Of a stretch of 64,000 nt of DNA, positions 3,001-31,829 are shown one piece after another; positions within the stretch are counted from its first letter, which is position 1, and every line of letters starts with the position of its first letter. This stretch comes from Naegleria gruberi (taxonomy: Eukaryota). Position numbers and translations under genes: made by a program. The stretch is taken from assembly GCA_000004985.1 (NCBI GenBank), contig GG738922.1, one strand, 5' to 3'. Below the pieces are notes generated by a model. It was not told the DNA's origin, ran no database searches, and saw only the letters and a program-made list of their open reading frames with translations.

Positions 3001-3927
3001 ACTTCAATCTCATACACTGTTATTATTTTCGTATTCAGTGCCATTATTTCAGTTACTACAATTGTAGATGTCATTGCAGCATTGATTGGACAGGATATTT
3101 ACTTCAAAAGAAAAGTGCATTCCAATAACAAAATATTGAAAGAAAGTACTTCCTCTTTGGAAATGCAACTCGCATTAGCTCCACATCCTAAAAACAAGTT
3201 TTTCCACACTGATGCTCCGCTCTATTTTAGAACTGAGATGATTGCTTATGTGATTTGTTTTGCATTAATGATCGTTCAACAAGTAACAGGTTTAAGTGTT
3301 TATTCCAACTCAGATGCAATTGTAAATATTGAAATTGTCAATTTGGTCTTTCAATTACTGTACTATATTTCATTCATTGGAGTGTTTGGAGGTTTTTCAT
3401 TGACAGTTTTGTTAATTTATAGAAAAAAATCAAAGAAATCATCCCACGATGCCTCTGAACTGAATGAAATTATCAATGAGGTTATTGGATTACAATTATT
3501 CGAAGTGTTTTGTGAATCAGAATTTTCCACTGAAAATCTTTACTTGTATCAATTACTGAAAGAAAATGAGAATATAAATTCAGAAGCAAATATCATGAAA
3601 TTATCAACTTTCGTAAGAACTATTTTCGAATTGTTCATTCAAAGAAATTCCAAGTACGAGGTTAACATTCCATCAAGTGTTTCAACAAATTTCAAACATT
3701 TGATAAACATATTAGAAAGTACAAACATTGAACTGCAACAAGATGAAACCAATTCACCTTTGAAACTAAAGTCAAAGGAGGTATTTAGTGACCTTTTGGA
3801 TCAAATTTTATTGAACTTGGAGGATACCTTTTCAAGGTTTGTAACATTGGACGTTTATGAAAGATACAAAGAAAAGAAAGATTGGAAGACAAACATGTTA
3901 GCACAATCAAATATAAGCGTTCAATAA
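1..3927 (+). CDS. 5'-partial adhesion-type GPCR (Cys-rich repeats, EGF-like, GPS/GAIN, 7TM) with C-terminal RGS domain
   Basis: Frame 1 is open from nt 1, so the gene start lies upstream of the window. The N-terminus has repeated CxxCxAGTYS units (GCC2/GCC3-like Cys repeats) and an EGF-like CSGNGVCVSNNTCSCFEGFDGLNC. A long S/T/N-rich stalk follows. A GPS motif CMYWDETFSIWSTEGCTLVGWSNSSVFCGCNHTTSFATF lies at about nt 2300-2420, followed by seven hydrophobic helices. The C-terminus carries an RGS box (LFEVFCESEFSTENLYLYQLLKE..., about nt 3460-3880). Confidence 0.75.
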   Translation, partial: AGSYSSAGASSCSQCGAGTYSAGGASSCTNCGAGTYSSTVGGTNSSVCLNCVAGTYSFETGAASANVCQSCRAGTYSSMGSSNCTNCTPGFYSTTVNATSSATCIPCSAGTFSNSTGASYCFQCPEGTNSASGSSLCNSFSCFQYNNCSGNGVCVSNNTCSCFEGFDGLNCNISLPFSINLNSSYVTLSTTKIFTVLVVGNYSDIIRYDVFCMNCSFLNFTTSNNLITIDMTGQNIGKFTLMVVATMNNSRISAPSSLIVEIVPLINPPSTGKFGFLSIPKIVERNNPKLDVIISNLTDVDESFVGNCGLQTMCSFKLTTYLVEQTESSSLTLWTQSQVVVGSNKYTTIFFTPLVSLNPSLTFTTVNSTTLLLYMTLESSNGNNSYSTAIPIVDSAFAPTNINFTSMPQSGPAIQQIFSISSSPWNAPLQIQPLFYSYGIYLSDTQQYIQLSPFTQSTQAYIPLPYLSDGPVSVAIFVKNSLGNIISKVLGQVTVIKSIGNVDYLNLTDTQLAVSVFDQSSQLTTSDISTIIRRIDIGSNPDSPLLYLNTLVLNNILDGSQLGLLSNKLYHFLNNSAASYEQEMVNFGFVKSKLSEEALNSTFSIISTIISNSTFDGLLTSFSQLVIQSSIPKVVSDSDMTFISYSSNFAKASLVSFVLPSTNYGYNSNSYFVSPTGMNFSVTLNFTEITSIGEANTHGLSIITFSNNSKLDNYSISNQMLSNVADFKYFLNNSYVKLRNLNNPIILKFDVQSEVIGNISNPSLISCMYWDETFSIWSTEGCTLVGWSNSSVFCGCNHTTSFATFIDYNLSSIATIGEKTQVSGLFIAQIFFGCLFAVISFVMLILLVIFRKHQPVSSRLITPYMGMIALLVECISIFIIQRSVLVDYLWNNNIDWSSGTNAPNVIANITLIIVNSLNITAIFCYVWQTIRYEVMKYLYDLISKRTDNHPTGMKVLRRFVSQTLFISLTAICLTLNIAYWLLWVILRRTEAISATAFTQITSISYTVIIFVFSAIISVTTIVDVIAALIGQDIYFKRKVHSNNKILKESTSSLEMQLALAPHPKNKFFHTDAPLYFRTEMIAYVICFALMIVQQVTGLSVYSNSDAIVNIEIVNLVFQLLYYISFIGVFGGFSLTVLLIYRKKSKKSSHDASELNEIINEVIGLQLFEVFCESEFSTENLYLYQLLKENENINSEANIMKLSTFVRTIFELFIQRNSKYEVNIPSSVSTNFKHLINILESTNIELQQDETNSPLKLKSKEVFSDLLDQILLNLEDTFSRFVTLDVYERYKEKKDWKTNMLAQSNISVQ

Positions 3928-4097
3928 ATTATTACCTAGGTTTAGAATCAATATTCGAGATTACTTCTTCAATATTCCATTTTGTTAGATTCCAAACACA
4001 TAGAGTTATTCAAAACTAAACGAAATTATGGTCAACCGTGCAATAGTTCACCAAGTTCTCCATTTGAAATGCAATGAAACATTAGAGGCAATTCAAA

Positions 4098-5489
4098 TTG
4101 TTAGTGATAAAACAATGTTTTCATGAACATAAAGATTTCAAGTTCACAGTTCCAAACCAACGAAAATCTTCAAATACCAAAAGAATGCAAATTTTAAAAA
4201 TAAATCACAACGAAAAAAAACAACTCAAAAACTCGCAGCAGCGAAAAATCATAAACGAAAAAGTGAAGAAAATGAACAGCGATAATTTTTTCTTTGAAGA
4301 AAGCCTTTTGCAAGAATTGTCCAACAATTTGATGGAAAGCTTTGATCAGGCTGCCTACTCTGCTTGTTCATCATCCGATACTTGTTCATCCACTAATACT
4401 GATGATGAATCTATTTTACAATTCTTTAATTTTAATAATCAATTGATGACATCGATATCATGTCAATGCGAAGGTGGTTTTGAATTGAATAATAATACTA
4501 AAGTTTCAAGACCAAGAGGAGCTCCATTTTCTATCTACGTTAACGACAAGTTGAACGTTACCATTTCTACTCAATTTTTGAGTGAAAATAATTTAAATCA
4601 ATCATCAGTGACAATTTCCTTGAAGACCTTCTTGTTTGAAGATGTCTCATCACTCGATAGTTTAGAAGAATATACTATCAATTTGAACCAAGCTAAAATG
4701 GTCAATAATCAATTACAAATAACAATTCCTATCAGAAGAGATAACACCACTAGAAGAAAGACTAGAAAGTCAACTGCCAAGTCAATCAAGGGTGAAGAAA
4801 CTGCTGAAGATTTGGAAAGAAAGAAAAAGATGAGAAGAAGCTTGAATCAAGAAGCTACCAAGAAGGTTTCCTATATTCAAGTTATTGCTAATCAACAAGT
4901 TTTAGCCACTTCTCAAAATATGTGGTGTAGATCCAAGACAAGATCCGAAATGGAAAAGAAGAAGGGTCGTAAAACTTCTACTCCAAAGAAGAATCCAAGC
5001 ACCAAGAGAAAGTCATCTGATTTGATTCCTTTGGAAATTGATGCACAAATGATTAATACTCATTTGAAGTCTGCCAAACGTGTCAAGCAAACTGCTCCTA
5101 CTGTTGTTGTTGAAACTCAACCAATTTCAATGGTGGAAGAAGAAATTCCAGAATACATGATGCAAATGATTCCAACCAATTGGCAAGAAGTTTGTGGTGT
5201 TACAACTGTTGATGGTGCCAAACAAGTGCAAACTGTCACAGTCAACAATGATGAAGATGATGTCTTTGCCTTATTCGATAATGATTTCATGTTCCAAGAA
5301 CCAATGCCATCTCCATCATCTGCTATTCCTTCAATGGGTATTAATTTGGATTTGGATGATTTGTTCCCACTCGAAAGTATCCAACAACCAGCATCTGCTA
5401 TTAATGGTCACATGATGTTCGCCAAGCCAGTTTGTCTTGATGATTTGGATTTCGATACCTTCTTAACTGAACAAGAAATAAACATGTAA
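4098..5489 (+). CDS. hypothetical N/K-rich protein with acidic C-terminus; true start probably the Met at about 4270
   Basis: Long ORF. The first approximately 170 nt are A-rich and look like UTR, so the real start is likely MNSDNFFFEE. It has basic KRK stretches and an acidic hydrophobic tail DDLDFDTFLTEQE resembling an activation motif. Confidence 0.4.
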   Translation: MLVIKQCFHEHKDFKFTVPNQRKSSNTKRMQILKINHNEKKQLKNSQQRKIINEKVKKMNSDNFFFEESLLQELSNNLMESFDQAAYSACSSSDTCSSTNTDDESILQFFNFNNQLMTSISCQCEGGFELNNNTKVSRPRGAPFSIYVNDKLNVTISTQFLSENNLNQSSVTISLKTFLFEDVSSLDSLEEYTINLNQAKMVNNQLQITIPIRRDNTTRRKTRKSTAKSIKGEETAEDLERKKKMRRSLNQEATKKVSYIQVIANQQVLATSQNMWCRSKTRSEMEKKKGRKTSTPKKNPSTKRKSSDLIPLEIDAQMINTHLKSAKRVKQTAPTVVVETQPISMVEEEIPEYMMQMIPTNWQEVCGVTTVDGAKQVQTVTVNNDEDDVFALFDNDFMFQEPMPSPSSAIPSMGINLDLDDLFPLESIQQPASAINGHMMFAKPVCLDDLDFDTFLTEQEINM

Positions 5490-7476: not shown

Positions 7477-9066
7477 ATGTTTCCACTCATAAAAAGCCTT
7501 TCCGATATTCAAGCTTGTTTTTCTTCGGCAATTAACCAACAAGAAGATGTCCATCATCTTCATACAAAATCAAACTCTATTATCGGAGGCTTTTCTAACA
7601 ATAATTTAATGGATCAATTCAAGATTGAACGTGATGGTGGTTACATCTTTATCAAATATAAACATGCTATATCGATGAAAGATACTTTTCCTGATCCGAA
7701 TGATGAATTTCTATCTGCAGAGGAACGTTTGAATTATCAACTCAGAAGGGAATGTAGAGGAATTGTATTTCGGAATGATCAAGATGATGATGAAGTAAAT
7801 ATTCAGCAGGAAAATATACAAAATGATGAAAAGAAGGTGAAAGGAAGAATCATTTCGAGAAAGTTTCACAAGTTTTTCAATATTAATGAGAGGGAGGAGA
7901 GTAATGTGGAGAGTATAAATTGGAGAAGAGGTTTTATTGTGATGGAAAAGATGGATGGATCATTGGTTTCGCCACTGAGGATTATTCGAAACGATGATTT
8001 GAATGATGGGATAGAAGATTCGAATAGAGTGTGGACATTTACTTCAATGTTGGGATTTACAGAAACTGGACAAGCTGTGGATGAGTTCATCTATCAAGAA
8101 ATGGAGGGAAGAAAGAGAGACAAATTATTCGAATTGTGTGAATATTGTGAAGAGAGTGGAATAACTCCATTATTTGAATTTTGTTCAAAGGAAAACAAGG
8201 TTGTTATTGAACATGAAAAGACAAGTTTAATCCTTTTGGCATTTAGAAATATAGAATCTGGAGAATATATGTCCTTCAAAGATACTGTTAACACTCTCAA
8301 CAAGTTCAATAACCCGGTTCCTATTGTAAAACTGTGGAAGGAATATCCTAATGGATTGAAAGGAGTAGAGGATGCAAACAAGCTCTTGAAGGAAATTTAT
8401 GCCCAAAAGAATGTTGAAGGATATGTCATTAGATTTTATGAAGGTGACATGTATAAGGTAAAGACCACATGGTACACAAGCTTGCATGGATTGGAAACTA
8501 CAGGAAAGTTTATTAGAGATCGACACGTTATTAAGGGAATTTTGGAGAATAATGTTGATGATATCATTTCTAGTTCCTTCTTTAACGGAGAGGAAAAGAA
8601 GAGGAAAGCTCTTCAATTATTCAGAGATGAAGTTGAAAGAAGGATACTCCTTAAAATTGCTGAAACCACAAAGGAATTGAAGGAGAAATCAATTGATGAC
8701 ATTTCACCAGATTCAATCACTGGTAAATTTTACTATTATCTCACTTCAGAGCATCCACAAGAAGCTATCAACAATTCAGATCTCATAACATCCGTATACT
8801 ATTCATTCCTCATTGAATATTTTAAGCTTAATGGAAGAGAATTCGATAGACACCGAAAATTATTCTACAAGTATCTCTCTATTGATTTCTCAGTCATGAA
8901 ACCTTACCATTTCACACATGAAGGAATTTTATCAGAACCAAGCAGCAGCAGCACTCCACCTAAAAAACAAGCACAACCACCAAGATATGCCGCTTCCAAA
9001 AACGATTCCACAAACCAATCATCAAACTCTGCAAAACCATCAGTTGACAAGAAGAAACGCAAGTAA
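7477..9066 (+). CDS. ATP-dependent RNA ligase, T4 Rnl1 family, with basic C-terminal tail
   Basis: Near-collinear motif matches to T4 RNA ligase 1. These are ECRGIVF, KFFNINE, motif I VMEKMDGSLVS (KxDGSL lysine-adenylate site), PLFEFCSKENKVVIEHEKTSLILLAFRNIESGEYMSF, motif IV NVEGYVIRF, and motif V KVKTTWYTSLH. The C-terminal S/K-rich tail ends KKKRK, a likely NLS. Confidence 0.8.
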   Translation: MFPLIKSLSDIQACFSSAINQQEDVHHLHTKSNSIIGGFSNNNLMDQFKIERDGGYIFIKYKHAISMKDTFPDPNDEFLSAEERLNYQLRRECRGIVFRNDQDDDEVNIQQENIQNDEKKVKGRIISRKFHKFFNINEREESNVESINWRRGFIVMEKMDGSLVSPLRIIRNDDLNDGIEDSNRVWTFTSMLGFTETGQAVDEFIYQEMEGRKRDKLFELCEYCEESGITPLFEFCSKENKVVIEHEKTSLILLAFRNIESGEYMSFKDTVNTLNKFNNPVPIVKLWKEYPNGLKGVEDANKLLKEIYAQKNVEGYVIRFYEGDMYKVKTTWYTSLHGLETTGKFIRDRHVIKGILENNVDDIISSSFFNGEEKKRKALQLFRDEVERRILLKIAETTKELKEKSIDDISPDSITGKFYYYLTSEHPQEAINNSDLITSVYYSFLIEYFKLNGREFDRHRKLFYKYLSIDFSVMKPYHFTHEGILSEPSSSSTPPKKQAQPPRYAASKNDSTNQSSNSAKPSVDKKKRK

Positions 9067-22315: not shown

Positions 22316-23827
22316 ATGAAGAGAAGCGAATTTTCAGCAATTCCTGATGAAGTTATCTTTCATAGAATTCTTCCGTATTTCGAATATAGATGGATACTAA
22401 ATGTTGGAAGATTAGTTTGTAAATATTGGAATGAAAATTACAAATCAATAGAAACTTTCGACTTTTCTGTCAATTATTACGGAAATGATAATTATTGGGA
22501 AAGATTATTGAATGATGTGCATTCTGGCGAATTAGAAAAAGTAACGGGATTGAATTTTCGATTACCACTTGCATGGAATTATGATTTGGAATTGCAACAA
22601 AAATTAATTACCAAATTAAGTAATTTGAAAGAATTGTCTTTAGGCCCATGTGCATGTGAATATCCCTTGATTATGACTAAATTGGAACATTTGGAAAGGG
22701 TTGTTTTAAATTTGAGATACATTAACATTGTTGAATTTTTGAAAAATTGCAAATCAAAAATCAAATCCTTTGACATTTCAAGTGTGGAATACAAACAAGA
22801 TTTCAGTTTTGATATTGAATGGCCATTAGAACACCTCTCTGTCTCTGGTCTCTCCACAAATTCATGGATTTCCTTGTTGAACAGCAAATTTGCAAGGAAT
22901 TCCTTAAAAAGTCTAAAGATTTGTAATTGTGGAATACTTCCAAATGAGGCAGTGTTTGATTTGATTGGAAATTTGGATTGTCTGACCGAGTTGGATTGTT
23001 CTGAAAAAGTTTTATGGAAACACATGAGAAAAATTGGGAAATTGAAGAAATTGACTTGCAATAAGGTGTTTCGTGGGGCAGAATCTGAATTGGACTTGTC
23101 ATTATTAACAAATTTGGAATACTTATGTTTAATGAGTAATGATTTGGTGGGAAGTTCATTTAAACATTTACAAAATATGAATCATCTCACGGAATTAATA
23201 TTGGCCAATAACAAAATAGAAAATGCTGCTGCTTTGAGCTCTGTCACTAGCTTGACTCATTTGGATCTTTCGAATAATTATATTCGAGATGAAGGATTGA
23301 AAGATTTTTGCCAACTTGTTAATTTGAAATATCTATCGTTGGAATACAATCAAATTGGCAGTATTGGAGCTAATTATCTTTCCAAGATTGTCCAGCTAGA
23401 GCAATTGAATCTTGCACGTAATTATATTGGAGAAATAGGTGTGGAAAATTATGGAAATTTACAAGCATTGAGAATTCTGAATTTGAATGCAAATAATATT
23501 GGAGATGGATTGAAATTCCTGGCTTGTTGTAACTCCTTGAATCAGTTATATGTTGCCTCGAACAAAATTAGTAGTAAGGGATTAATTGATTTTTGCAAAG
23601 TTTCAATGCCAAATTTGAAAGTATTGACCATTTCTAATAATAATGTTGGAAAGGCAGTTGCTCTGTTGGTATGTTTTAAAGGGACAGAAGTGAGAGCAGA
23701 TAACTGTAATATTGGATTGACTGATGCTGTGCAATATGTGGCAGAAAAAGGCATATCCAGTTTCTCAAACCAATTAATCAACACAAAGAACAAATTATTA
23801 TCAATATTCGATTCCTCAATGTTTTAA
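22316..23827 (+). CDS. F-box/leucine-rich-repeat protein
   Basis: N-terminal F-box IPDEVIFHRILPYFEYRWILNVGRLVCKYWN. The C-terminal half has tandem approximately 24-aa LRRs (LxxLxLxxNxI...). Confidence 0.7.
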   Translation: MKRSEFSAIPDEVIFHRILPYFEYRWILNVGRLVCKYWNENYKSIETFDFSVNYYGNDNYWERLLNDVHSGELEKVTGLNFRLPLAWNYDLELQQKLITKLSNLKELSLGPCACEYPLIMTKLEHLERVVLNLRYINIVEFLKNCKSKIKSFDISSVEYKQDFSFDIEWPLEHLSVSGLSTNSWISLLNSKFARNSLKSLKICNCGILPNEAVFDLIGNLDCLTELDCSEKVLWKHMRKIGKLKKLTCNKVFRGAESELDLSLLTNLEYLCLMSNDLVGSSFKHLQNMNHLTELILANNKIENAAALSSVTSLTHLDLSNNYIRDEGLKDFCQLVNLKYLSLEYNQIGSIGANYLSKIVQLEQLNLARNYIGEIGVENYGNLQALRILNLNANNIGDGLKFLACCNSLNQLYVASNKISSKGLIDFCKVSMPNLKVLTISNNNVGKAVALLVCFKGTEVRADNCNIGLTDAVQYVAEKGISSFSNQLINTKNKLLSIFDSSMF

Positions 23828-28115: not shown

Positions 28116-29318
28116 TTGGATAGGGAAGGACTATTTCGGATATGTGAAATGAAACAATTAACTAGTCTTGATATTTATGGACATTTATTTGATTATTTTA
28201 AGGTTCGGTCGAGTGATGAGAAGGAGGATGATTCCTCAACAGCAATTAAACTTCCGAACCACAACAACAATAACATATTGAACCAATCGGAAGATGTGCA
28301 TAGAATACATGATTCCGATGAAGATGAAGATGATGGGTATGGAGTTTATGATGATGAGGAAATTGATGAGGTGAAGGAAATTTGTAAAATTGATGAGAAA
28401 ATCCTTAAAGATCCAATTCAATTTATGGAAATTTTGCAAGTGGTAAGGGATTCAGTGTTGGATTATTTTGCATTGCATGAATTGGTGGAATTGCAGTTGA
28501 GTTGTAAATATTTTAATGAGATGGTGGATTTGTTTATTGTAACGAGAAGTGCAGTGTGGTGGTCTGCTTGTTGGAGGAGAACTTTCAATTACATGTATGG
28601 AGGCGAGGCAGTTAATAATCGAATAAGATTTGGGTCTATTCATTCCCATACTGAGAATACTTCAACATTCAATCATTTTTATGCCTCGTCATTATCAATT
28701 GAGGAGGAAATGAAACTATTTCCATTCGTGCTGGAAGGTAGTGAGGAGGAGGTTGCACTGGTGAAGGAGGAAGAAGAAAAAGCTGCAGCTCAACTCAAAC
28801 TCAGGAGGTATAATCCAAGAGAGTTGCAAGGTAAATTTATTGGAAAGGAGACACAGCATGAAAGTTTCAAAATTACAAAGAGTAAGGTCACAAAATTAAT
28901 GAGAAAGTCTGGACTGCTAACTCAATTCATTTCCATGAGTTATTCATCAACAGGAAAGAGTGGATCAGCAAATGGTAATTTTGATAAGCAATTTCTCACA
29001 AAGAAAGTGAAAAGGAATTACTTTGAGGAACAACAAAGATCGAAAGGTCAATCTAAACTTGTTAAGCTTGCCAATAGTTCACTAAGGTTTATTTTTTGGT
29101 CAATATTTAACAAATGGTGGTTGAAAAGCAAATCCAAGGAAGAAAAACTCATAGCACATACTTCAACCATTAATAGAAAAAGATTGGCTTCCTATGATCG
29201 TTATGGACCTGTAAATAGAACTGAAACTGTTGAATTACTTTCATTAGTTCATCAAGTAGAAGGAAAACCAGATACTATCATTGGTACCTATGTAAAACAT
29301 CACTCCTATTATGCATAA
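28116..29318 (+). CDS. hypothetical protein with possible F-box-like segment
   Basis: 400-aa ORF. ILQVVRDSVLDYFALHELVELQLSCKYFNEMVDLF is loosely F-box-like. It has an acidic DE-rich N-terminal region. Confidence 0.35.
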   Translation: MDREGLFRICEMKQLTSLDIYGHLFDYFKVRSSDEKEDDSSTAIKLPNHNNNNILNQSEDVHRIHDSDEDEDDGYGVYDDEEIDEVKEICKIDEKILKDPIQFMEILQVVRDSVLDYFALHELVELQLSCKYFNEMVDLFIVTRSAVWWSACWRRTFNYMYGGEAVNNRIRFGSIHSHTENTSTFNHFYASSLSIEEEMKLFPFVLEGSEEEVALVKEEEEKAAAQLKLRRYNPRELQGKFIGKETQHESFKITKSKVTKLMRKSGLLTQFISMSYSSTGKSGSANGNFDKQFLTKKVKRNYFEEQQRSKGQSKLVKLANSSLRFIFWSIFNKWWLKSKSKEEKLIAHTSTINRKRLASYDRYGPVNRTETVELLSLVHQVEGKPDTIIGTYVKHHSYYA

Positions 29319-29357: not shown

Positions 29358-30122
29358 TTAATTCTTCTTCTTTCTGGTATTGGAAAGTGGATAGAGAGGT
29401 TCAGGATATTTTGCCAGATAATTCTTGACATATTCATCCAATTCTCCAGCTTTTTTCATTTCCAATAATTCAACAAGAGTATCACCATGACAATGACATG
29501 ATGCGTCCACTTTACACCAACATCCCAAAACTTTTCCATCAAGCTCATCCAAATCTTTCAATAAATCATCTCTTCTCAAGATGTAATCTCTATATTTCTG
29601 ACAAGCCACTTCTGCACTTCCACCACAAGTAGATACAGGATATGGATTTCCCCACTTGGATTGTGGCAAACTCCAACCACCCTTATTCAAAGCTCTTCCA
29701 ATATAAACTTCACAATCCTGAACAACTTTACCATCCTTTCTTTGTAACTTGACTACACTAGTTGTTCTTTTCAAAGATAAAGGTGTTAGTGAGGATGATA
29801 CTTTTGGAGTGCTTGTTGAAATTTCTCCCAAAGTTGTTGTTGTTATTGTTTGTAATGCTGGTTTCTGAGCAAAGAACTTGGATTTCTTCACTTGTTGTTG
29901 TTGAGTAGTCTTACCAGATGATGATGATGATTCCGATTCGGAGGTAGCAGTAGATTTAAATGGTCGCTTTTGATTTGCTGATTTTACATTATTTTGCTTC
30001 TGTTGTTGCTGAGAAGTTGTACTTGATGAAGAGGAAGTAGATGATGATGATGAACTTTGATTGGCAGAAGTAGTACCAGCAGCAGGAACCGAAAAGAAAT
30101 TAAAGGATCGTTGTTGAGACAT
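29358..30122 (-). CDS. S/T/Q-rich protein with C-terminal DUF4326-like Cys/His domain
   Basis: C-terminal LGCWCKVDASCHCHGDTLVELL resembles the DUF4326 signature (CWC...CHGDVL), which is usually found in bacteria and phage. The N-terminal half is low-complexity Ser/Thr/Gln. Confidence 0.5.
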   Translation of the reverse strand: MSQQRSFNFFSVPAAGTTSANQSSSSSSTSSSSSTTSQQQQKQNNVKSANQKRPFKSTATSESESSSSSGKTTQQQQVKKSKFFAQKPALQTITTTTLGEISTSTPKVSSSLTPLSLKRTTSVVKLQRKDGKVVQDCEVYIGRALNKGGWSLPQSKWGNPYPVSTCGGSAEVACQKYRDYILRRDDLLKDLDELDGKVLGCWCKVDASCHCHGDTLVELLEMKKAGELDEYVKNYLAKYPEPLYPLSNTRKKKN

Positions 30123-30358: not shown

Positions 30359-30773
30359 TTAATATTGTTGTTGAACAGTGGTAGTTTGAACTGTTTGTTG
30401 AACGTATGCTTGTGGAGGAACATACCCAACAATAGGTTGTTGAACAATGACTGGTTGTTGGACATAGACAGGTTGTTGGGCCATAACTGGTTGAGCAGTG
30501 GTGGTAATGACAACTTGCTTTTGATTGTTATATTTGAGATTGCAACCATCAACCATACCAGGAATCAGAACTGTTTAAATATTAATAGTAAAATTATGAA
30601 TATTGTTCATATAACTATTGAATAGTATTAATTTACTTACTAAGATCGACCAATTGGCCAATACCGAACAAACCTCCAGTAACCAACCAGACAATACCCA
30701 AGATAAAGGAGTCCAAATAGAAACGATGCAATCCAAACAATCCAATACAACAACCTAACCAAAGAAGATACGC
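30359..30773 (-). CDS. TM2-domain membrane protein (last two exons; first exon unresolved)
   Basis: Exon 30641..30773 (frame shifted relative to the listed ORF) joins through a GTAAGT intron (30640..30571) to exon 30359..30570. The spliced product is AYLLWLGCCIGLFGLHRFYLDSFILGIVWLVTGGLFGIGQLVDL|IPGMVDGC... This contains the TM2 hallmark GxxGxHRFYL between two helices. The C-terminal tail has PVxVQQ repeats. An in-frame stop just upstream of 30773 implies a further upstream exon. Confidence 0.45.
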
Positions 30774-30801
30774 CTATATTCATCAAGTTATCCATACACC
30801 C

Positions 30802-30825
30802 CATCATCATCATCATCATCATCAT
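30802..30825. repeat. (CAT)8 microsatellite (ATG8 on minus strand)
   Basis: Direct read of catcatcatcatcatcatcatcat. It produces a spurious poly-Met ORF at 30640..30849. Confidence 0.9.
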
Positions 30826-31343
30826 TGTATCAGTAAAACACAAGCACAATCATCACAAATTCATTCATAACCATGGTCAACACCTTAAACCTTCCTTAAT
30901 TTGCACTCAATAACTTACAACACCTTGTTCTCTCATTTTTTTAATCGATCTGCACTCTATGGTTGTGTTGCAAACAGCCATGACTGTAAAGTCTCCCTTA
31001 CAGAGTCACATTGTTGCTTGGAGAGCTTTTTTAACGGTTTGGATTGTTGGCGCCACCACAACTGTTTCTGTTGGTGGTTCATTGCATGGATTTGAGGCAA
31101 GTCCATATACAGTAGAGGGAGGAGTTTACAATGAAAAGTTTGTTGAATAAAGTTAAGGATGTCTTTATTTGAATGTGTCCATACTTGATCCAAGAATGGA
31201 ATTAAATAGAGGTAAGAAAAGTTGATTGGTTTACAAATTTTAGCATCTGAGCAAGTGCTGAGGAATTTTTCATTTGAATATAAACTCAAAAGATGATGTT
31301 TATTGACTCAATAATCTCTGCCAAATTCCTCACACTATTTAAA

Positions 31344-31829
31344 TTATGGATTGACAATGAAAATTTCACCCATTACTTCCTTCAATTCATTTACACGCGT
31401 TTCACCAAGTCTACTTCTTGAATACTCACACTGATTCACAATCTCTATTGTATCTTTTAATTGATCCAAATTGGCGTGTAACAAATAGGTAATACATGAT
31501 TCAATCTTATCTAATGAATAGGTGCTACTTGGTGAAGGTGTTTTACCCTTGAAAATCAAGCTCAATATGTCGTGAGCAATGTCTTTGATCTTTTTAGATC
31601 GATGAAGGATAGAGCTTTGTCTCTGAGTTAATTGTTGTTTTGAAGATAGTGCAACGGAAGAGGATTGAGTACTTTGAATGAGAGAAGACAATTCAGAATA
31701 CAATTCTCTTAAAGCAGCCAAACATGGATTATGAGAGTTTGGATTATTGTTTATAATTAGTGGTTCAACATATTCTCTGCTTCTTGAAAGAATGTTGGAA
31801 TCAACAGAGTCTTGTTTAGTTTCTACCAT
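31344..31829 (-). CDS. hypothetical protein
   Basis: 161-aa ORF with predicted helical character and no diagnostic motif. Confidence 0.3.
   Translation of the reverse strand: MVETKQDSVDSNILSRSREYVEPLIINNNPNSHNPCLAALRELYSELSSLIQSTQSSSVALSSKQQLTQRQSSILHRSKKIKDIAHDILSLIFKGKTPSPSSTYSLDKIESCITYLLHANLDQLKDTIEIVNQCEYSRSRLGETRVNELKEVMGEIFIVNP

Follow-up and report, generated by a model that had tools for sequence, protein, structure and literature searches.

The window analysed here, a 64,000-nucleotide stretch of Naegleria gruberi contig GG738922.1, carries on its minus strand an intact, ATG-initiated, single-exon open reading frame (ORF) of 254 amino acid residues plus a stop codon (29358..30122), which encodes a protein with a C-terminal domain of the DUF4326 family. 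This is an old, constrained, resident and vertically inherited nuclear gene of N. gruberi, present in one copy within the window, and it is functional; its product is an ordinary added member of a known, biochemically uncharacterised family and is apparently unannotated. The explanation that we favour overall, a resident gene for a rhodanese-phosphatase superfamily enzyme (RapZ-C/DUF488/DUF4326 branch) equipped with a targeting tail, has in our estimate a probability of about 0.45.

The initial annotation had proposed, from the letters alone, an ORF with a DUF4326-like Cys/His C-terminal domain at this position. The ORF proved exact, with the string GCWCKVDASCHCHGDTL at residues 200-216 and with LGCWCKVDASCHCHGDTL in the C-terminal half of the protein. 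The Pfam profile PF14216 (DUF4326) matched residues 127-217 over profile positions 1-81 of 82 (E = 2.2e-19), and the score of 70.3 bits is far above the gathering cut-off of 25 bits. PF14216 was the sole significant Pfam-A family, PHROG 464 (unknown function) matched with an E value of 3.6e-25, and scans of the protein against NCBIfam and PADLOC gave no match. The family identity was thus confirmed by the profile score together with the presence of all family motifs (YIGR, SKWGNP, LGCWCK and CHGD), and the domain did not turn out to be a eukaryotic one known under another name.

Every invariant column of the 63- and 54-sequence family alignments is retained in the window protein. In the 63-sequence alignment these columns are, in the numbering of the window protein, I141, R143, L199, G200, C201, C203, C211, H212 and G213, and the S-K-W-G-N-P motif, K204 and D214 are nearly invariant. 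YIGR was found in 218 of the 240 proteins compared, and the CxC...CH pattern was retained in 365 of 366 gathered domain sequences. The spacer between CxC and CH measures 4 residues in 144 sequences, 5 in 7, 7 in 69 and 8-30 in 10; in the window protein it is 7, as in Naegleria fowleri. Two insertions that short forms of about 90-110 residues do not have, a hairpin after strand 1 (RK-G-x3-Q-x-C, residues 127-137) and GGWxLP before SKW (ALNKGGWSLP, residues 144-153), are both present, and jointly they mark an amoeba/giant-virus subfamily; the long-form insertion was found in 142 of 234 classified sequences. Judged by these sequence features, the window protein is a member of the long-form DUF4326 subfamily, which is common to amoebae and giant viruses.

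The protein consists of a disordered N-terminal region, a folded domain and a C-terminal extension (Table 1). The N-terminal half had been described as Ser/Thr-rich and of low complexity, which both its composition and the AlphaFold disorder support: residues 1-119 contain 41% Ser+Thr and 17% Gln+Asn, have a pI of 10.9 and zero Cys or His, and show a predicted local distance difference test (pLDDT) score of 45-59 without secondary structure in the full-length model. The attribution of this style to amoebozoa was mistaken, the host, N. gruberi NEG-M, being a member of Heterolobosea (Discoba). The folded part comprises the DUF4326 core (window 29472-29744) and a Naegleria-specific extra helix. 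The C-terminal extension, with a helix at residues 228-238 in the predicted model, shows 63-67% identity among Naegleria and a metagenomic protein from a heterolobosean-like contig (P0003), and is not found in Willaertia.

The AlphaFold model of the domain, built on the 63-sequence alignment, had a mean pLDDT of 91.7 and a predicted template modelling (pTM) score of 0.84, and residues 120-240 had a pLDDT of 89-98 in the full-length model. The domain is predicted to be a compact alpha/beta module in which three short strands are packed with five helices. In the model, a strand at residues 198-201 (VLGC) ends in CWC and is followed by a loop (202-211) and by a helix (212-224) that starts with CH; the conserved surface of the modelled fold is made up of the invariant Arg of YIGR, the SKWGNP loop, the strand-end CWC and the helix-start Cys-His. 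A Foldseek search against BFVD returned 28 matches at E <= 1e-3, nearly all named DUF4326 (best E = 1.5e-11; template modelling (TM) score 0.76-0.79), and thus the comparison of folds that the initial annotation had recommended showed agreement with the giant-virus DUF4326 models. The same search against the PDB matched no solved structure (best E = 2.0), and sequence and profile searches of the PDB gave no true match; those to CdvA and an aldolase were judged spurious.

Full-length relatives were found in N. fowleri (FDP41_007767, 54% identity), in Naegleria lovaniensis (C9374_007078, 52%) and in P0003 (52%), and the Willaertia magna protein ABK040_003719 matches over the domain. The two Naegleria orthologs, both named 'DUF4326 domain-containing protein' in UniRef, share with the window protein the layout of a disordered tail, one domain and a C-terminal helix, as well as the N-terminal MSQxRxFNF island. 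Both ends of the protein, with MSQQRSFNFF at the start and the C-terminal PEPLYP tail, are kept in N. fowleri, N. lovaniensis and P0003; the N-terminal island is not conserved in Willaertia. The N. gruberi protein differs from the Naegleria orthologs in its divergent N-terminal region (22-25% identity) and in a unique extra Cys-His pair, which produces the form CHCH; this form occurred in none of the 240 proteins compared, and the extra Cys209-His210 is species-specific, N. fowleri having KA there. At the DNA level, TGTCATTGTCAT at 29487-29498 on the minus strand (residues 209-212) is a perfect TGTCAT TGTCAT repeat that encodes Cys-His-Cys-His. An origin of TGTCATTGTCAT as an in-frame insertion was ruled out, the loop length being equal to that of N. 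fowleri.

Compared with N. fowleri, the tail is 22% identical, the domain 83% and the C-terminal extension 67%. The corresponding ratios of nonsynonymous to synonymous substitution rates (dN/dS, NG86 method) were about 0.8, 0.05 and 0.26, which are rough values with dS saturated. The domain is under strong purifying selection, and the disordered N-terminal half evolves under hardly any constraint. The upstream gene order (CDC20, a chromo-domain protein, the NAEGRDRAFT_75253 homolog and the DUF4326 gene) is shared with N. fowleri, in which FDP41_007767 likewise adjoins the chromo-domain and CDC20 genes; the downstream neighbour differs between the two species. The Willaertia and P0003 contigs had no flanking gene in common with the window. 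The GC content (0.367) and the GC content at third codon positions (GC3, 0.23) of the DUF4326 gene are like those of the neighbouring genes, and these neighbours are ordinary eukaryotic genes, including those for CDC20, chromo-domain, leucine-rich repeat (LRR) and Myb proteins. Because of the synteny, the native composition and the strong purifying selection on the domain, we regard the gene as an old resident and not as a recent transfer. The earlier proposal of a domain derived by horizontal gene transfer was not supported as far as recent events are concerned: the GC and GC3 values are native, an ortholog lies at the syntenic site of N. fowleri, and the tree described below follows the Naegleria species. 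That the sequence is instead a recently acquired or decaying giant-virus or phage fragment without host function is largely refuted and very improbable: the closest non-heterolobosean relatives do include proteins on giant-virus contigs, and the protein collection searched lacks the product though it contains three neighbouring N. gruberi proteins, but the ordinary eukaryotic neighbours, the N. fowleri synteny, the native composition, the domain dN/dS of 0.05 and a phylogeny that mirrors the species tree all argue against it.

The absence of the product bears on its annotation. The 254-residue sequence was not found in a collection of 15 billion proteins, in which the three neighbouring N. gruberi proteins are present (XP_002669852.1, XP_002669850.1 and XP_002669804.1), and homology searches of a word-indexed protein collection, the index of which is not exhaustive, gave no N. 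gruberi match. In the latter searches the full-length query found the N. fowleri and N. lovaniensis orthologs, and domain-only or profile queries missed them; since orthologs with 83% identity in the domain were missed, absences in this search are unreliable. The gene is probably missing from the N. gruberi reference annotation or mis-modelled in it.

To obtain the distribution of the family, 1.84 billion cluster representatives (50% identity clusters) were scanned exhaustively with HMMER, which gave 22,745 DUF4326 clusters at E <= 1e-3, of which 9,622 reach E <= 1e-10. The matches are mostly stand-alone proteins of about 90-110 residues, and the family is mostly viral or prokaryotic, with a patchy presence in eukaryotes. 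The description of the domain as normally bacterial or phage therefore holds for the family as a whole, but not for the long-form subfamily, which occurs in amoebae, other eukaryotes and giant viruses. Its members were found, beside Naegleria, in Willaertia among Heterolobosea; in Acanthamoeba castellanii (ACA1_398940), Balamuthia and EukProt transcripts of Stenamoeba, Thecamoeba, Cavostelium and Phalansterium among Amoebozoa; in Thecamonas trahens and the rhizarian Lapot gusevi (EukProt); and in Cedratvirus and Orpheovirus. BFVD adds Solumvirus, Pandoravirus, Marseillevirus, Pithovirus and mimivirus as DUF4326 carriers. Two close relatives lie on contigs with giant-virus hallmarks (RNA polymerase subunits, ribonucleotide reductase (RNR), ligase and dense packing), and IMG/VR contains 389 confirmed viral DUF4326 loci, the best of them on contigs of 0.35-2.0 Mb. 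Two short forms that were checked lie on long, densely packed contigs resembling large phage or mobile DNA. A tblastn search of 50,697 phage genomes gave a single match, jumbo phage XacN1, a single-sequence tblastn being insensitive to short forms.

The giant-virus proteins (from Solumvirus, Pandoravirus, Pithovirus, Cedratvirus, Orpheovirus and Marseilleviridae) and the Acanthamoeba homolog have the same long-form domain with both insertions, are 38-60% identical to the window protein, and match it in predicted structure. The giant-virus versions often stand alone (about 100-130 residues) or carry a fused SLOG, NADAR or fucosidase-like domain, whereas the Naegleria protein is encoded on a cellular chromosome and has a disordered tail as its sole addition. 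The short phage form (PHROG 464; Xanthomonas jumbo phage XacN1 ORF394) shares YIGR, SKWGNPF, LGCWCKP and CHGD with the window protein, but lacks the two insertions and the tail, usually has a loop of 4 instead of 7 residues, is about 90-110 residues long and shows about 45% identity or lower.

We reconstructed a phylogenetic tree by the neighbour-joining (NJ) method with 200 bootstraps. The topology (N. gruberi, (N. fowleri, N. lovaniensis)) received 94-100% support and follows the species tree. The grouping of Naegleria with P0003 was supported at 99%, and the addition of Willaertia at 36%. The deeper nodes intermix eukaryotes and giant viruses with support of 48% or less. Exchange between amoebae and their viruses is plausible; because this interleaving is unsupported, neither the fact nor the direction of a transfer can be demonstrated for Naegleria. 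For the Acanthamoeba homolog, the Medusavirus paper inferred an amoeba-to-virus transfer and paired XP_004336203.1 with Medusavirus ORF 330 (PMC6450098).

Domain fusions were surveyed with Pfam in the 35 multi-domain relatives within the top 150 clusters. The additional domains were NADAR and AlkB-like 2-oxoglutarate (2OG) oxygenase (two each) and ADP-ribosylglycohydrolase (ARH), Macro, RNase H, RNase T, dUTPase, DHFR and alpha-L-fucosidase (one each), besides single matches to Sec6, gp30.3 and a DeoR helix-turn-helix (HTH) domain. Among the viral loci, a SLOG (YAcAr/DprA-like)-DUF4326 fusion occurs in Marseilleviridae-sized genomes, and further architectures, NADAR-plus-PTP and DUF2493 (SLOG), appear in BFVD descriptions. 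Several relatives bear additional Zn-ribbon or SWIM modules. On phage contigs, DUF4326 is fused to PHP, UDG-superfamily, DpdA or SNF2 enzymes (Table 1), suggesting a role of the domain after base removal or exchange in DNA. Taken together, the fusions, among which enzymes that cleave ribosyl or base linkages recur, reproduce the two themes described by the Aravind laboratory, namely the processing of NAD and ADP-ribose on the one hand and the replication, modification or restriction of DNA on the other (PMC7824862, PMC9503650). Tandem double or triple DUF4326 domains, each of which keeps CWC...CH (as CHA), were observed in four metagenomic proteins (P0244, of 352 residues, P0241, P0242 and P0243). 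The 148 genes flanking DUF4326 at 52 non-redundant viral loci include no recurrent partner and give no specific hint at function; they show only general replication and nucleotide-metabolism genes, with DUF5772 (4) and Metallophos (3) the commonest families and DNA polymerase A, RNR, DNA methylase, DHH and two PAN-domain families next (two each). On one 707-kb giant-virus-like contig (L011), an ARH gene lies about 4 kb from a DUF4326 gene (3843-4808 and 8001-8525, both on the plus strand).

As to the placement of the domain, 26 of the 63 relatives gave sub-threshold matches to the Pfam family 'Active DUF488-N3 subclade' (PF22751) over CWC...CHGD; the best E value was 3.3e-5 and the best score, from a Marseillevirus protein, was 25.4 bits, against a gathering cut-off of 27. 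The window domain itself scored 12 bits (E = 0.27), below that cut-off. These weak matches would point to a sister relationship of DUF4326 and DUF488-N3 only, and do not prove the classification. An hhalign comparison of the family profile with Escherichia coli YeaO (DUF488) gave a probability of 0.6%, which is uninformative since YeaO is without the Cys motif. In the model, the strand-Cys-loop-helix arrangement expected of protein tyrosine phosphatase (PTP)-like Cys phosphatases can be recognised at the level of secondary structure. The Aravind laboratory has predicted that a rhodanese-phosphatase clade processes terminal ribose phosphates in ADP-ribose (ADPr) products and bridges NAD signalling and DNA modification (PMC9503650, PMC7824862).

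On this basis we propose that the domain would be an enzyme of the RapZ-C/DUF488/DUF4326 branch, the Cys/His/Arg cluster of which may remove or transfer a terminal phosphate on ribose or deoxyribose. Candidate substrates are a metabolite derived from ADP-ribose and a nucleic-acid end that arises in base-excision/glycosylase or de-ADP-ribosylation steps, and the basic tail, with a KRP(F/R)K patch that is conserved in Naegleria, probably brings the enzyme into the nucleus or onto nucleic acid. We put forward such a Cys/His-dependent phosphoesterase or phosphotransferase activity on ribose- or deoxyribose-attached phosphate tentatively, at somewhat under even odds. Several points weigh against it. 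The CX5R phosphate-binding loop of PTP and dual-specificity phosphatases (DUSP) is absent, His and not Arg following the variable spacer, and a rigid P-loop is hard to reconcile with the family because the CxC-CH spacer varies from 4 to 30 residues and there is no CX5R. DUF4326 also differs from the PTP/DUSP cysteine phosphatases in having two extra invariant Cys residues and a much smaller sheet. The flanking-gene census contained no recurrent ADP-ribose partner, the proposed nuclear targeting is read from composition, and literature and structure searches yielded no assayed DUF4326 protein and no solved structure, the functional discussion in the papers found to mention DUF4326 being computational prediction only.

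In addition, the three Cys and one His could instead form a zinc site. The CxC...CH pattern would then belong to a zinc-stabilised nucleic-acid or ADP-ribose binding module, or to a zinc-dependent hydrolase, and not to a thiol phosphatase. The near-universal Cys3His (365 of 366 sequences) around a variable loop of 4 to 30 residues is what one expects of metal-ligand pairs and would be unusual for a P-loop, so that zinc fits the variable loop better than phosphatase chemistry does; two Cys at i and i+2 on a strand point to the same side; and the relatives include proteins with Zn-ribbon or SWIM modules and many fused to DNA enzymes. However, the adjacent Cys211 and His212 are unlikely to ligate one metal together, and the further invariant residues (Arg143, SKWGNP) suggest a substrate pocket and not a purely structural site. 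Glu replaces the second Cys in the related DUF488 motif, which also speaks against zinc; E. coli YeaO, the sole DUF488 sequence read, has neither. We consider the zinc site unlikely, yet a serious competitor of the phosphoesterase.

A divergent NADAR-like N-glycosidase, which would remove ADP-ribose from bases or hydrolyse ribosyl-N linkages, is improbable. No Pfam NADAR signal was found at any threshold in the window protein or in 63 stand-alone relatives, and NADAR (PF08719), to which no profile relationship was found, occurs as a domain of its own next to DUF4326 within single proteins; such a fusion in one polypeptide argues for complementary and not redundant chemistry. The NADAR active site is not known to include an invariant Cys cluster.

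The constrained cellular ortholog in a culturable eukaryote shows that the DUF4326 domain does work for the host and does not serve solely as a viral weapon, in a large family whose phage and giant-virus members occur next to enzymes of ADP-ribose metabolism and DNA repair. A bolder generalisation, which we think doubtful, is that long-form DUF4326 represents an uncharacterised class of Cys/His (possibly zinc-assisted) enzymes, common to amoebae and giant viruses, that would clear phospho-ribose or ADP-ribose remnants from nucleic-acid ends or NAD-derived signals. If so, the Naegleria gene would be its conserved cellular prototype, in single copy, constrained and with a targeting tail, and a tractable starting point for working out what reaction this family, which counts more than 20,000 clusters, carries out. 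In practical terms, residues 120-254 make a clean stand-alone construct for biochemistry, and the gene could be added to the N. gruberi annotation. Otherwise the result is routine, confirming what the N. fowleri annotation and the surveys of the Aravind laboratory already imply.

Table 1. Coordinates of the DUF4326 gene, its parts and its neighbours in the window, and of DUF4326 fusions on phage contigs (contig handles precede their coordinates)
Feature	Position	Strand	Basis or remark
Complete coding sequence, N. gruberi DUF4326 protein	29358..30122	-	ORF list; both ends conserved among orthologs
Disordered, basic, Ser/Thr/Gln-rich N-terminal region, residues 1-119	29766..30122	-	Composition, AlphaFold, low identity
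N-terminal island MSQxRxFNFxxV, residues 1-12	30087..30122	-	Conserved in three Naegleria and metagenomic P0003
Folded domain, residues 120-240	29403..29765	-	Pfam, AlphaFold, 83% identity to N. fowleri
YIGR motif, residues 140-143	29694..29705	-	I141 and R143 invariant (alignments)
Long-form insertion ALNKGGWSLP, residues 144-153	29664..29693	-	Not in short phage-type members
SKWGNP motif, residues 155-160	29643..29660	-	S155 and W157 invariant; K156, N159 and P160 at least 90% conserved
LGCWCK, residues 199-204, end of strand beta3, invariant Cys201 and Cys203	29511..29528	-	Alignments; predicted strand 198-201
CHCHGD, residues 209-214	29481..29498	-	Invariant Cys211-His212-Gly213 at helix N-terminus, preceded by extra Cys209-His210
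C-terminal extension, residues 223-254: helix GELDEYVKNYL, PEPLYP tail, basic end	29361..29456	-	Ortholog alignment
NAEGRDRAFT_75249	22316-23827	+	Exact match to N. gruberi NEG-M protein
NAEGRDRAFT_75253	31344-31829	-	Exact match to N. gruberi NEG-M protein
CDC20, XP_002669852.1	36214-38793	-	Exact match to N. gruberi NEG-M protein
DUF4326-PHP phosphoesterase fusion	L036 7002-8114	+	Phage contig
DUF4326-UDG-superfamily glycosylase fusion	L037 6445-7398	+	Phage contig
DUF4326-DpdA (7-deazapurine DNA transglycosylase) fusion	L089 3214-4542	+	Phage contig
DUF4326-SNF2 helicase fusion	L091 7941-9602	+	Phage contig

Two short motifs in the N-terminal tail were considered. The N-terminal QRSFNFF was ruled out as a PIP-box by its misfitting spacing and by the motif not being kept in N. 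fowleri. KSKFF (29868-29882 on the minus strand, residues 81-85), within the otherwise unconserved tail, fits the Mlh1-interacting (MIP-box) consensus [RK]-S-[HRK]-[FY]-F, a speculative assignment and possibly a chance match; the corresponding site is TSKYF in P0003 and TSKFF in Willaertia, and the motif is missing in N. fowleri and N. lovaniensis.

Downstream of the DUF4326 gene, an ORF of 400 residues on the plus strand (28116-29318), without a Pfam match, is convergent with it, the two stop codons being 39 bp apart. N. fowleri carries an AMP-binding enzyme gene at this position, so that synteny is lost right at the 3' end of the DUF4326 gene. On the other side, between the DUF4326 gene and NAEGRDRAFT_75253, there is an apparent small two-exon gene on the minus strand (30359-30849), which has no counterpart at the syntenic N. 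fowleri site. Its putative first exon (30640-30849) encodes a Met run followed by a hydrophobic, membrane-like segment, the intron (GTAAGT...AACAG) would lie at about 30557-30639, and the putative second exon (30359-30556) encodes a Gln/Pro/Val-rich repeat tail, QQPVYVQQPVIVQQP.

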